Of a stretch of 64,000 bases of DNA, positions 23,101-25,861 are shown in pieces. The position numbers and the translations under genes are program-made. The notes beneath the pieces were generated by a model. It had not been told where the DNA came from. It ran no database searches and saw only the letters and a program-made list of their open reading frames with translations. The number at the start of each line of letters is the position of its first letter. Position 1 is the first letter of the stretch. Source of the stretch: Roseibacillus sp. (GTDB lineage Bacteria; Verrucomicrobiota; Verrucomicrobiia; Verrucomicrobiales; Akkermansiaceae); assembly GCA_965242925.1 (NCBI GenBank), contig CBDEUM010000038.1, positions 160,001 to 224,000 on the forward strand, written 5' to 3'.

Positions 23101-23821
23101 CTCCGTTTCGATCGGGGATCCAGTTCTTCCCGGTGAGATACTCGCGATACCAGGCGCGGCGCTCCTCCACGGTGGTCAGGCTGAGATCCTTCTTTACGAG
23201 GTCCTGATGGTTGCGAATGTCGAGGCTGCTTTGCTTGCGGCGCCTGGCGGCAGTGACATAGGCCCTTCCCTGATCGTCCACGGAGATCGCCACCGTGTTC
23301 GCAATTGCAGGATCGGTAGCCCATTCGGTCACAACGAACTGCGGTTTCTTCCCGACATCCTGAACGAGGGCCACCCCGGGAGTAATGCCGGGAAGGTGAA
23401 TGGTGTGAACGTTGGCCCAGTCGTTCTCATTGCTGCCAAAAACCGTGAGGCGAAGCCAGCGGGCTTTTCGAGCGGGTAGTTTGTAGGTCACCACCCCGCT
23501 TCGGCTCTCGCTTTGCAGTTTGACCGGGTTGTTCCAGTTCTTCCCATCGTTGGAAGTCGTCATCTCGAACGAATAGTTCCGCTCTGCTGACTGGAAGCCG
23601 ATACCGACCGAGGAGAGCTCAACTTCCTGGTCGAGTTCGCACTGAATCCACGTTCCCCGGCCCTGCATGGCCCATCTGGTGCCGGCATCCTGGTCAAAGG
23701 CCTTGATGGCCTCGTTTCCTGCCTGCTCTCCGGCGGCAGTGATGGACTTGAGCTGGGCGGCAGATGCGGGGGTGAGGCCGAGGACGGCGGCGAGTAGCGC
23801 AACAGGGAAGATTCGATTCAT
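20195..23821 (-). CDS. PVC-type haem-binding CxxCH protein (dehydrogenase-like propeller + HEAT-like repeats + cytochrome c) with N-terminal discoidin/F5-8-type domain
   Basis: Start MNRIFPV with signal peptide; AFDQDAGTRW...WIQCEL discoidin pattern; GPDGRVYWSLGD, GERNAQELAFD; helical repeats; CIRCH...GPEL, SAMP. Confidence 0.88.
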   Translation of the reverse strand: MNRIFPVALLAAVLGLTPASAAQLKSITAAGEQAGNEAIKAFDQDAGTRWAMQGRGTWIQCELDQEVELSSVGIGFQSAERNYSFEMTTSNDGKNWNNPVKLQSESRSGVVTYKLPARKARWLRLTVFGSNENDWANVHTIHLPGITPGVALVQDVGKKPQFVVTEWATDPAIANTVAISVDDQGRAYVTAARRRKQSSLDIRNHQDLVKKDLSLTTVEERRAWYREYLTGKNWIPDRNGDGARDWRDLTVQKDSVIQVADKDGDGKGETIRTLGEFHTEVTGIAAGVLAVNSDVFVAAEPDFLRYHDSDGDGFPDAREVVATGFQVHMGQGGHNLSGVALGPDGRVYWSLGDKGHYVKTREGKIYHQPNSGGIFRCELDGSQVERYSSGERNAQELAFDAHGNLFSMDNDGDYPGEKERALYITEGSEHGWRLNWQWLRKQDFTRISGIAAYNPWMDERLFLPDRDDHAAYLTPTIGNFGPGPCGFTANPGTALSPDLSDCFFMTNQQGQVRVFRFLEKGAHFEFKEQAAIKGGRSNTGLAVGPDGALYSACYGGGRGSIFRFDVTEEHQHPARRDTQRILALDAEKIAPGKLPGWLGHPDQRVRMKGQLELARRNMSEALTEVLRNPEATRLARLHAIWGIGQISRRAPMALTSLEPAWQSDDPEVVAQCAKVAGDIPGHLPKIAGLRKHLLTALEHKSPRVQFFAAISLGKHKVEEAAPGLINLLATGGSKDPYLRHAAMMGLKGALSPARLASLHEHDNRTVRLAAIVALRNLRAPEITAFLEDGDELILLEAARAIHDDQSIPEALPALSQLLGRPGLTNEALMRRVINAAFRVGTYPALLQLEGYLKRREGSSRMKRTALASLLWWSQPPVLDAVEGRYRKHAPRDSKPANEAVSRLKVVIMEDNELREVLLNGVSVRGEASWLEGTSEHFGKLSSSLQIKVLDGLARTNSPDLGEFVQAALASDDPKVQEKARTYAAQAGVPMLDLLLGILEKKGSAGQGKAIKQLAEDKDPRARKKFASLVEQYRNGKADPRWKLELWQAAQAKGIKLPETSDRLEHGGDAERGKQLVTNHAAAQCIRCHKLGKEGGKPSTELTIGPELNRIGAQRDRKHLVASLLTPSSDISDGYGTVVLRTKEGEEVSGILSKKTDLFWTVTLANGKKRNLRPDEISSHILTSAMPPMVALLKPEEIRDVVEFLASLK

Positions 23822-23980
23822 GCTGGGACTTAGCGAGTGTTGGCTACCAGGTCTTGAATGTCCATCTCCCACGAGAGTCCGATGAGGGGACTCCGCCGGG
23901 GCGCGGGATGTCATGGTTGCTTTGGGTGCCGGAGAAACACGGGTATTGACCCCGATTCAGCAGGAAAGTATTCGGCCTGC

Positions 23981-24337
23981 ATGTCCAAGGTCACGATCTA
24001 CCATAATCCGCACTGAGGCTCCTCCGTAAATGCCCTGGCGGTCGCCGAGGAACTGGGAGTGGAGCATGAGGTGATTCTCTACATCAAGACTCCGCCGGAC
24101 CGCGGGGTGCTGGAGTTGATCGTGGAAGGCCTCGAGGATCCGGTGGAGGACCTGGTGCGCAAGGATTCCAAGTTCAAGAAGCTGACGCTCGATCCCGCTG
24201 ACTATGTGGACAACCCGGAGGCGGTGATTGAAATTCTTCTCAAGCACAAGCAACTCCTGCAGCGGCCAGTCCTGGTGCGAGGGAGGAAGGCGATCATCGG
24301 GCGACCCAAGGGACGGATCCATGAGTTCCTTGGATAG
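23981..24337 (+). CDS. arsC: ArsC (glutaredoxin-type arsenate reductase) family selenoprotein; in-frame TGA at codon 12 read as Sec
   Basis: ATG 23981 gives MSKVTIYHNPH-(TGA 24014-24016)-GSSVNAL..., in frame with ORF 24059..24337. The TGA sits at the Cys12 position of the YHNPxC motif; Arg60, Arg95 (QRP) and Arg108 (GRP) are retained. Confidence 0.88.
24018..24065 (+). promoter_or_regulatory. Putative bacterial SECIS element
   Basis: GCTCC (24018-22) pairs with GGAGC (24061-65); TCC pairs with GGA; upper stem CC-TGGC / GCCG-A-GG closes a GGTC loop (24040-43), 23 nt after the UGA. Confidence 0.75.
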
Positions 24338-24373
24338 GGCAGACTTGCCCGCTTGTAAGGAACAGCTTGCAGC

Positions 24374-25861
24374 TCAGGTCAGCAGGCTCTTCACGACGTG
24401 GCCGTGCACGTCGGTGAGTCGGTAGTGCCGGCCCTGGAAGCGATAGGTGAGCCGTTCATGGTTGAGGCCCAGGAGGTGAAGAATGGTGGCATTGAGGTCG
24501 TGGATGTGAACTCCCTTGGAGTCCTTATCCACGATGTTGTAGCACCAATCATCGGTCTCCCCGTAGCTCATGCCGCCCTTGATGCCGCCGCCAGCCATCC
24601 AGATTGAAAAGCAGCGAGGATGGTGATCGCGGCCATAACTGTTGGCATTGCCGCCCTGGCGGTAGACAGTGCGGCCGAACTCGCCACCCCAGATCACAAG
24701 GGTGTCCTCGAGCATGCCGCGCTCCTTGAGATCGCGGATGAGGGCGGAGGAACCCTGGTCGACCTCCCTCGCGATCCTCGGATGTCGATTGGGCAGGTTG
24801 GAGTGATGATCCCAGCCACGGTGGTAGAGTTGAATGAAGCGCACATCGCGCTCGGCGAGTCGGCGTGCGAGAAGGCAGTTGGCAGCGTGAGTGCCTGGAA
24901 TGCGGGCGTCTTCCCCGTAGAGTTTGAAGGTGCTCTCCGGTTCGTCCGAGAAATTGGTAAGCTCCGGGACGGACATCTGCATGCGGTAGGACATCTCGTA
25001 TTGCGCGATGCGGGTGGTGATTTCAGGGTCGCCGACGTCCTGGAAGCGTTCCTGGTTGAGCTTGGAGAGTGTATCGAGAAGTTCGCGTCTGTCCTTGAGA
25101 GGTGCTCCTGTAGGATCCTTCAGGTAGAGAACAGGATCGCCAGCCCCACGCAACTTAACCCCCTGGTGATTGGAGGGCAGGAAGCCGCTACCCCACAGGC
25201 GTGAATAGGTTGGCTGGGCCTGGTTGTCGGAATTCTTGTCGAGGAGAACGACGAAGGCAGGGAGATTGGCATTGGTGCTCCCCAGGCCGTAGCTGGCCCA
25301 TGCTCCGAGGGATGGTCGGCCCGGTTGCTGATGCCCAGTCTGGAAAAAGGTGATGGCCGGGTCGTGATTGATGGCCTCGGTGTGCATCGATTTGATGATG
25401 CAAATGTCATCTGCAATCTGCTGGTGAAAGGGCAGGAGGTTGCTGATCCACTGGCCGGATTGACCGTGCTGGCCGAATTTGGTGAAAGACTTGGCGGCGG
25501 GGAAGGACTTTTGACCAGCCGTCATGCCGGTGAGGCGTTGCTTCCCACGCACGGAGTCGGGAAGATTCTGCCCGTTCAGTTTCTCAAGGGTGGGCTTGTA
25601 ATCGAAGGTATCGATCTGAGAAGGGGCACCGGACTGAAAGAGGTAGATCACGCGTTTGGCCCTGGGGGCGAAGTGCACGGGTCCCGGACTGCCCGGTTCG
25701 TAACCCGGGCCGTTGTTCTCCGCCCTGGGAGCCGCGTGCAGTTGGGGAAGATCGAGAAGAGACGCGAGCGCAGCGGCTCCGATTCCCGCGGTGGTGCCGC
25801 GCTGGAGGAAGTGGCGGCGGGTGAGATTGAGGCGAAACTCGGTGCAGGGGTCGTGGGACAT
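24374..25861 (-). CDS. DUF1501 domain protein (Tat signal)
   Basis: TRRHFL; AKRVIYLFQSGAPSQIDTFDYKP, INHDPA, GWDHH, GEFGRT, GRDHHP, RLTDVHG. Confidence 0.94.
   Translation of the reverse strand: MSHDPCTEFRLNLTRRHFLQRGTTAGIGAAALASLLDLPQLHAAPRAENNGPGYEPGSPGPVHFAPRAKRVIYLFQSGAPSQIDTFDYKPTLEKLNGQNLPDSVRGKQRLTGMTAGQKSFPAAKSFTKFGQHGQSGQWISNLLPFHQQIADDICIIKSMHTEAINHDPAITFFQTGHQQPGRPSLGAWASYGLGSTNANLPAFVVLLDKNSDNQAQPTYSRLWGSGFLPSNHQGVKLRGAGDPVLYLKDPTGAPLKDRRELLDTLSKLNQERFQDVGDPEITTRIAQYEMSYRMQMSVPELTNFSDEPESTFKLYGEDARIPGTHAANCLLARRLAERDVRFIQLYHRGWDHHSNLPNRHPRIAREVDQGSSALIRDLKERGMLEDTLVIWGGEFGRTVYRQGGNANSYGRDHHPRCFSIWMAGGGIKGGMSYGETDDWCYNIVDKDSKGVHIHDLNATILHLLGLNHERLTYRFQGRHYRLTDVHGHVVKSLLT

Follow-up and report, generated by a model that had tools for sequence, protein, structure and literature searches.

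In a 64,000-nucleotide stretch of a Roseibacillus sp. assembly (GCA_965242925.1, contig CBDEUM010000038.1, positions 160,001 to 224,000; hereafter the window), a gene of the ArsC family (PF03960) carries an apparent early stop, TGA at codon 12, that is almost certainly read as selenocysteine (Sec, U) at an ArsC-like active site. The gene lies at 23981 to 24337 on the forward strand, from an ATG (23981-23983) to a TAG (24335-24337), and with the TGA (24014-24016, forward strand) read as U it would yield a UxxS protein of 118 amino acids containing no Cys at all. Standard gene calling misses this product: the ORF list made with translation table 11 begins at GTG 24059 and gives a 92-amino-acid ORF (24059 to 24337, forward strand) without the active-site loop. 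An earlier note on this DNA had pointed to the in-frame ATG at 23981, the TGA at codon 12, the ORF track beginning at 24059 and a Cys-free 118-residue product, all of which held when the sequence was re-read and translated. Its proposal of a Sec-containing ArsC-like enzyme is supported by the pairing of TGA with Cys among homologues, a covarying SECIS element, purifying selection and the Sec machinery of the host. On this evidence we put the probability of Sec insertion at UGA12 at about 0.96, and we are nearly as confident that the locus holds a complete gene, standing on its own, whose product is a small cytoplasmic selenoenzyme with the ArsC fold, a member of the "arsenate reductase (ArsC 1), UxxS" family that most likely shares the chemistry of R773 ArsC.

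The in-frame TGA is shared by every orthologue analyzed. Among 60 related genomes the gene is present in 14, with TGA at codon 12 in all 14; the carriers are 13 of the 19 genomes of the same genus and one from another genus of the family, and none of the 24 genomes from the order's other families has it. A search of a species-genome collection confirmed 226 loci, and in the best 80 of these codon 12 is TGA in 80 of 80 and TGG in none (both sets draw on GTDB and probably overlap, so the two counts are not additive, and kin within them are not independent). These best 80 of 226 loci also all encode the full Arg triad, and 79 of them are free of Cys. By record title, 46 of the best 80 come from Verrucomicrobiota and 34 from Acidimicrobiia/Actinomycetota, and the closest named loci are Akkermansiaceae/Roseibacillus MAGs, which together with the mostly marine sequencing runs that contain this stretch makes a marine Verrucomicrobiales bacterium the most likely source of the window. 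Against 79 of the best 80 loci (one short locus was left out), pN/pS is 0.18 in codons 2 to 11, which precede the TGA, and 0.23 in codons 27 to 118, values that indicate a gene under purifying selection. This is the opposite of the relaxed selection, combined with a TGA never found in close homologues, that the earlier note had named as grounds for abandoning its reading. The Cys/TGA pairing at position 12 that it had hoped to see among homologues was also found: in the 121 of 150 distant representatives that cover the loop, the corresponding column is Cys in 117 and Trp in 4, and close Cys forms occur at 64 to 66% identity.

Downstream of the UGA lies a SECIS-like hairpin (24033 to 24050, forward strand), recognized by covariation and synonymous constraint, with a 7-bp upper stem that has one C-A mismatch in this copy and a GGUC loop at 24040-24043, which follows the UGA at a distance of 23 nt. 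At the four-fold degenerate codons 18, 20, 21, and 22, third-position entropy averages 0.22 bits, compared with 1.69 bits (minimum, 1.15) at 49 other four-fold codons. We examined covariation in 71 sequences, namely the window and 70 of the best 80 of 226 loci, after leaving out one locus identical to the window in this region and nine whose match starts at residue 3 or 4. Pairing is kept in 97.8% of cells, a fraction biased in favor of the hairpin because the structure was drawn from the same 71 sequences, and three of the seven pairs show two-sided compensatory change, above shuffled and slid controls; RNAalifold recovers the outer five of the seven pairs only. The constraints given for bacterial SECIS elements in the text of PMC13188914 are a loop of 3 to 9 nt, a stem of 4 to 16 bp, G in the first two loop positions, a distance of 16 to 37 nt from the UGA and a minimum free energy of at most −7.5 kcal/mol, and the hairpin falls within them with its GGUC loop, 7-bp stem, 23-nt distance, and predicted energy of −7.8 (36-nt piece) to −19 kcal/mol (63 nt). 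A GGU apex is also found 3′ of the TGA in the SelD and FdhA genes of the source genome. The stability of the hairpin alone shows no excess over shuffles (z = 0.03), and Rfam gave no relevant match over 23700 to 24600. Because a loose genome-wide screen for TGA plus hairpin returned 2,539 matches, the hairpin alone proves nothing.

The source genome, which is 89.9% complete, encodes a tRNA-SeC(UCA), SelB (287 bits), and SelD (367 bits), all scoring over their cut-offs, and the SelD gene itself has an in-frame TGA. SelA has no match in this assembly, and for the alternative Sec synthase SepSecS (PF05889) nothing in the genome scores over the cut-off. SelA is present in 18 of the 19 same-genus genomes, and in three relatives selA sits inside a gcvT...selA...rplT(-pheS) block, none of whose genes was found in the source assembly save for one weak, 24% identical gcvT-like match. 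Both rplT and pheS are essential genes. Since they and two flanking genes are missing too, and since 18 of 19 same-genus genomes have selA, its absence points to an assembly gap; with this block missing, absence calls in the source assembly are unreliable in general. The expectation that the genome should encode Sec machinery is thus borne out for tRNA-Sec, SelB, and SelD but not for selA, which probably fell into the same gap as rplT and pheS. Of 36 genomes of the family, 25 are SelA positive, and 14 of these carry the gene; none of the 11 SelA-negative ones does. SelA is matched in 32 of the 34 acidimicrobial carriers, with 31 of these matches over the cut-off.

The source genome holds other selenoprotein candidates, all apart from the gene studied here. 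One is a multicopy family of large FG-GAP plus ASPIC/UnbV (CRTAC1-like) proteins, mostly with AhpC/TSA and TPR domains, whose loci (L147-L153) lie outside the window at C28:4493+, C12:89967+, C13:132387+, C20:16543+, C22:99699-, C30:361056+, C12:51079+, and C17:49805+. Each has one in-frame TGA within a DLUSxxWR motif, followed 17 nt downstream by a GGUC hairpin. The family has 12 matches in the source genome and is present in 11 of 21 genomes searched, with one TGA in all but three short partial matches; it does not appear in Table 1 of PMC13188914, and our literature search found no paper joining its three search concepts. A coding-score screen gave further candidates (C22:63568+, C14:407258-, C14:245880-, C39:27529+, C12:64342+, C34:19637-, C14:573883+): FdhA (above the TIGR01591 cut-off), a TxxU peroxiredoxin, a CxxU AhpD-like protein (above the TIGR01926 cut-off), an HMA-like UxxC protein, two proteins without a family match (motifs TUGSC and DGUVLC), and SelD.

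The predicted protein matches PF03960 at 51.2 bits (cut-off, 24), and it is the only PF03960 protein of the source genome. No recurrent fusion partner was seen among 11 longer homologues scanned. The best TIGR match is TIGR00014, at 90.2 bits (with C scored for U) below its cut-off of 106.05. In the alignment to E. coli ArsC (1i9d; E = 1.4e-14), codon 12 falls on Cys12, and it opens a U-G-S-S motif at codons 12 to 15. An AlphaFold2 model (C in place of U, 23-row alignment) has a pLDDT of 90, and its best fold matches are ArsC structures, with TM scores of 0.77 to 0.82. The ArsC oxyanion-binding triad is Arg60, Arg94, and Arg107, accompanied by His8 and Ser15 (PMC5593903, PMC3169414, as described there). 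Alignment to ArsC structures and orthologues places Arg60 (24158-24160), Arg95 (24263-24265, equivalent to R773 Arg94), and Arg108 (24302-24304, equivalent to R773 Arg107), all on the forward strand, in these positions, in agreement with the earlier claim that the TGA corresponds to R773 Cys12 and that the triad is intact. His8, Asn9, Ser15, Val16, Pro96, Gly107, and Pro109 were likewise confirmed at their codons, and His8, Ser15, and the entire triad are kept in all of the best 80 of 226 loci. PMC5593903 names His8/Asn9/Ser15 and Arg60/Arg107/Pro108 as the sets that arsenic resistance requires, and it gives Lys93/Asn60 as the YffB set; this protein has both of the former and lacks the YffB set.

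The ArsC motif described as HX3CX3R (PMC3169414) is broken at its last position, which is Val16 here (24026-24028, forward strand). Arg occupies this position in 99 of 117 Cys12 representatives, and among the Sec orthologues (best 80 of 226 loci) it is Lys in 41, Thr in 12, Arg in 7, Val, Asp, and Gln in 5 each, Glu in 4, and Asn in 1. Residue 16 is thus relaxed across the Sec clade and is not a mark of this gene. The earlier note had taken the Val as a hint that the substrate may not be arsenate; the residue is indeed Val, but the argument is weak given how variable the position is in these 80 orthologues. We do not file the protein under the glutaredoxin-coupled equivalog because its score falls short of the TIGR00014 cut-off, Arg16 is lacking, and a glutathione context was not found.

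We propose the following mechanism. SelB carrying Sec-tRNA(Sec) would bind the GGUC hairpin 23 nt downstream and so insert Sec at UGA12. In the folded enzyme the Arg60/95/108 triad would hold a tetrahedral oxyanion, most probably arsenate by analogy with R773 ArsC, and the Sec12 selenolate would attack it to form a Se-As intermediate. Because the protein has no resolving Cys, an external thiol system would be needed to resolve this intermediate and release arsenite. A protein resembling thioredoxin or glutaredoxin, or a low-molecular-weight thiol other than glutathione, may act as the reductant; the source genome has one glutaredoxin-domain gene. Glutathione is probably not the reductant, as neither gshA nor gshB turned up in the carriers that were searched, and the glutathione cycle of R773 probably does not apply here. 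The active-site residues leave arsenate as the single most likely substrate. The odds somewhat favor its being a real substrate in vitro, and they fall slightly short of even for a main role in vivo in detoxifying arsenate.

The alternative that survives best accepts the same selenoprotein and gives it a physiological substrate other than arsenate, making it a stand-alone Sec redox enzyme whose ArsC anion pocket takes another ligand, perhaps a different oxyanion, perhaps an anionic thiol or selenium adduct. Its place would be in redox or selenium housekeeping in marine bacteria that are rich in selenoproteins. We regard this as a serious possibility, though a minority one. In its favor, genes for arsenite efflux and glutathione synthesis are undetected in most carriers, which makes doubt about arsenate fair. 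Acr3 matches that exceed the cut-off occur in 2 of the 15 verrucomicrobial carriers, no more often than in non-carriers (3 of 12), and in 4 of 34 acidimicrobial carriers; MIP channels occur in 2 of the 15 carriers, ArsM in none over the cut-off, and ArsB in none (the ArsB control reached its own cut-off in just 1 of 14 genomes). For glutathione synthesis, neither gshB (over the cut-off) nor GshA (PF04262) was found in the 15 carriers, and GCS2 was not found in the source genome. These counts come from mostly incomplete MAGs and cover the genes just named; glutathione synthesis by GshF may occur, and so may efflux through ArsJ (MFS) or ArsP, which tempers the case from missing efflux genes. As to other thiols, mycothiol MshC is over the cut-off in none of the 34 acidimicrobial carriers, with strong sub-threshold matches present, and bacillithiol BshC was not found in the source genome. 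The relaxed residue 16 also favors a different ligand, as does the fact that the nearest structures, 3rdw and 3f0i, are "putative" reductases from structural genomics. Against it stand the Arg triad, His8, and Ser15, kept in all of the best 80 of 226 loci and tied to arsenate reduction in the account of PMC5593903, and the precedent of arsC without arsB that PMC6205960 describes in other bacteria. The source genome has three LMW-PTP-fold genes, all in non-ars contexts; a near-identical block of an LMW-PTP gene, an rpiB-fused gene, and a helix-turn-helix protein gene is found on two contigs (L129 on C27, L130 on C39) and is probably a strain duplication in the bin.

The surroundings of the gene bear on the same question. 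As the earlier note had observed, no ars operon adjoins it: the divergent neighbor encodes a PVC-type heme-binding CxxCH-like protein, and the convergent one is a DUF1501 gene. Reading the sequences of the 40 commonest neighbor clusters of 81 loci revealed no ars-like gene, a result that also favors a substrate other than arsenate, and no shared partner emerged, the commonest neighbor family occurring in only 10 of the 81 loci (an antisense shadow ORF aside). This shadow is a 121-amino-acid ORF at 23957 to 24322 on the reverse strand that overlaps the gene; shadow ORFs of variable length recur in 44 of the 81 loci, and we take them as a by-product of the coding strand. Upstream, motif conservation suggests a putative sigma-70-type promoter (23946 to 23974, forward strand) with a −35 element TTGACC, a 17-nt spacer, and a weak −10 element TATTCG. 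The motif TTG[AC] occurs at −36 to −34 from the start in 28 of 43 verrucomicrobial loci, and a Shine-Dalgarno-like motif in 3 of those 43 versus 21 of 30 acidimicrobial loci, a pattern that suggests a leaderless monocistronic mRNA starting at the ATG. A scan of the locus for consensus promoters and terminators made no call. A GC-rich short inverted repeat without a T-run (24337-24352) lies just 3′ of the stop, between the convergent genes.

Far less probable than either enzymatic reading is a Spx/MgsR-like regulator that would bind RNA polymerase and sense redox state through its Sec. The protein scores weakly against TIGR01617 (42 bits) and against Spx (28 bits), folds much as Spx does (TM about 0.8), and has a Gly at the Gly106 position. 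However, its motif is UxxS and not CxxC, its score to TIGR00014 is far higher while that to TIGR01617 lies well under the 75-bit cut-off, and it is 30 to 34% identical to ArsC versus 21 to 26% to Spx. It also keeps Arg60, Arg108, and Pro109 together with His8, Asn9, and Ser15, which Spx lacks in the account of PMC5593903. We consider a regulatory role very unlikely and retain the ArsC-like selenoenzyme.

A pseudogene or sequencing error, in which TGA12 would be a true stop and either the 92-amino-acid ORF from 24059 or nothing would be made, is strongly disfavored. Three observations could be read this way: most of the best database entries are truncated, selA is not in the source assembly, and raw reads cover the codon poorly. 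Among the 120 best protein matches, 88 are truncated, 28 have W12, and 4 have C; the earlier note had predicted that pipelines would truncate this gene, and these 88 entries are short in the same manner as the 92-amino-acid table 11 ORF. The W12 entries sit on short contigs (longest, 0.5 to 2.4 kb) and are most likely code-4 translations of them. Taken together, 116 of these 120 database proteins are truncated or have W in place of Sec, a systematic annotation error that the present reading corrects. Among runs containing this stretch, which are mostly marine or seawater metagenomes, X7 has a contig that covers the stretch in full with no difference listed at 24014-24016 and so agrees with the TGA. 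An RNA-library contig of run X15 covers 23994 to 24183 (the 5′ half of the gene) and likewise has no difference at the codon, which does not prove transcription; the raw reads of run X21 have a depth below 1 there, too thin to judge the base. The truncating interpretation is further opposed by a TGA shared by all of the best 80 of 226 loci in two phyla, by purifying selection on codons 2 to 11, by a conserved and covarying SECIS, and by the restriction of the gene, within the family, to SelA-positive genomes. We conclude from these comparisons that TGA12 is neither chance nor an assembly error. Decoding of UGA as one of the standard residues, such as Trp (code 4), for which the W12 in 28 of the 120 matches might speak, is the least credible option of all, because the sole UCA-anticodon tRNA of the genome is called tRNA-SeC (above the RF01852 cut-off) and its tRNA-Trp has CCA, the homologous column is Cys, and all of the best 80 of 226 loci have TGA with no TGG.

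A quick tree of 93 rows sets all 81 Sec forms apart by a single branch (SH-aLRT, 87), with the Cys forms at 64 to 66% identity as their sister group. Because Sec forms are 70 to 79% identical across two phyla and patchily spread, the sequences suggest horizontal transfer between phyla. Verrucomicrobial rows nest among acidimicrobial rows in quick trees (SH-aLRT, 82 to 94), and an AU test on 39 hand-picked rows of the 93 did not reject acidimicrobial monophyly (P = 0.232); since this leaves the direction unfixed, we claim no donor. Two records disagree with their titles: in L093, titled Chthoniobacterales, the gene and a neighbor cluster group with Acidimicrobiia, and in L082, titled Acidimicrobiales, the gene groups with Verrucomicrobiota, reflecting either mis-binning or recent transfer. 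Tentatively, the UxxS proteins of marine Verrucomicrobiales and Acidimicrobiia may form one cross-phylum Sec clade that stands outside the glutathione-plus-efflux arsenic system, with either another substrate or a glutathione-independent cycle. If so, the catalogue name "arsenate reductase" is misleading.

The gene appears to belong to a selenoprotein family predicted since 2005 and does not represent a novel type of system. Zhang, Fomenko & Gladyshev (2005, PMC1088965) described 14 Sec "arsenate reductase" genes with UXXS and SECIS from Sargasso Sea DNA, and the GOS survey of 2008 listed 77 sequences of ArsC 1 (pfam03960, UxxS) in 23 samples (PMC2398784). The family also appears in PMC9312934, and Table 1 of PMC13188914 gives it as "predicted with high confidence" and not as "experimentally verified"; AACY01238341 and MBT3519430.1 are published representatives. 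The earlier note had called Sec-type ArsC-like proteins "not unprecedented," which is right as to precedents but understates a catalogued family with these Sargasso and GOS members. Sec has been engineered into the unrelated ArsC of B. subtilis as a mass spectrometry reporter (PMC4150793), and PMC1794560 and bioRxiv 10.64898/2026.04.03.716425 contribute nothing decisive on the family. Our literature search found no assay of a natural Sec ArsC and no paper joining selenocysteine, arsenate reductase, and Verrucomicrobia; the string "Verrucomicrob" is absent from the main text of PMC9312934, PMC13188914, and the 2006 survey, whose supplementary genome lists may include such hosts. A family so far seen mostly as unassigned ocean reads is now placed in identifiable genomes of two phyla. 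Its name is 20 years old and it is still listed as predicted, and a Cys-free 118-amino-acid protein with a compact SECIS offers a convenient test case for whether marine arsenate reduction makes use of selenium and for the reductant used without glutathione.

Among known systems, R773 ArsC (PDB 1i9d, 1jzw) shares with our protein its fold (TM, 0.77 to 0.82), about 31 to 33% identity, His8, a position-12 nucleophile, Ser15, and the Arg60/94/107 triad. Unlike R773 ArsC, the protein described here has Sec for Cys12, Val for Arg16, and 118 amino acids without the C-terminal extension; its gene is outside any ars operon, and in its hosts gshA and gshB went undetected, as for the most part did ArsB and Acr3. 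The stand-alone "putative arsenate reductases" 3rdw and 3f0i resemble it in length, IGRP motif, and structure (TM, 0.81 to 0.82), with 3rdw the best sequence match (E = 1e-16), but they are Cys enzymes at 32 to 34% identity, and the substrate of 3rdw is itself labeled putative. The "arsenate reductase 2/arsenate reductase-like" UxxC proteins (cd03032, NF041106) likewise carry Sec at the first redox position of a fold from the ArsC/Spx superfamily; unlike them, our protein has no resolving Cys, being UxxS and Cys-free, and does not match NF041106. The closest counterpart is the ArsC 1 family (COG1393, PF03960, TIGR00014), with which it shares the ArsC domain, Sec at the catalytic Cys, UxxS, marine origin, and an in-ORF SECIS with G in the apical loop, and from which no defining difference emerged when published representatives were compared by description and not by sequence. 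What this gene adds to the known ArsC 1 family is its host lineage and a genomic setting from which the glutathione and efflux context is missing.
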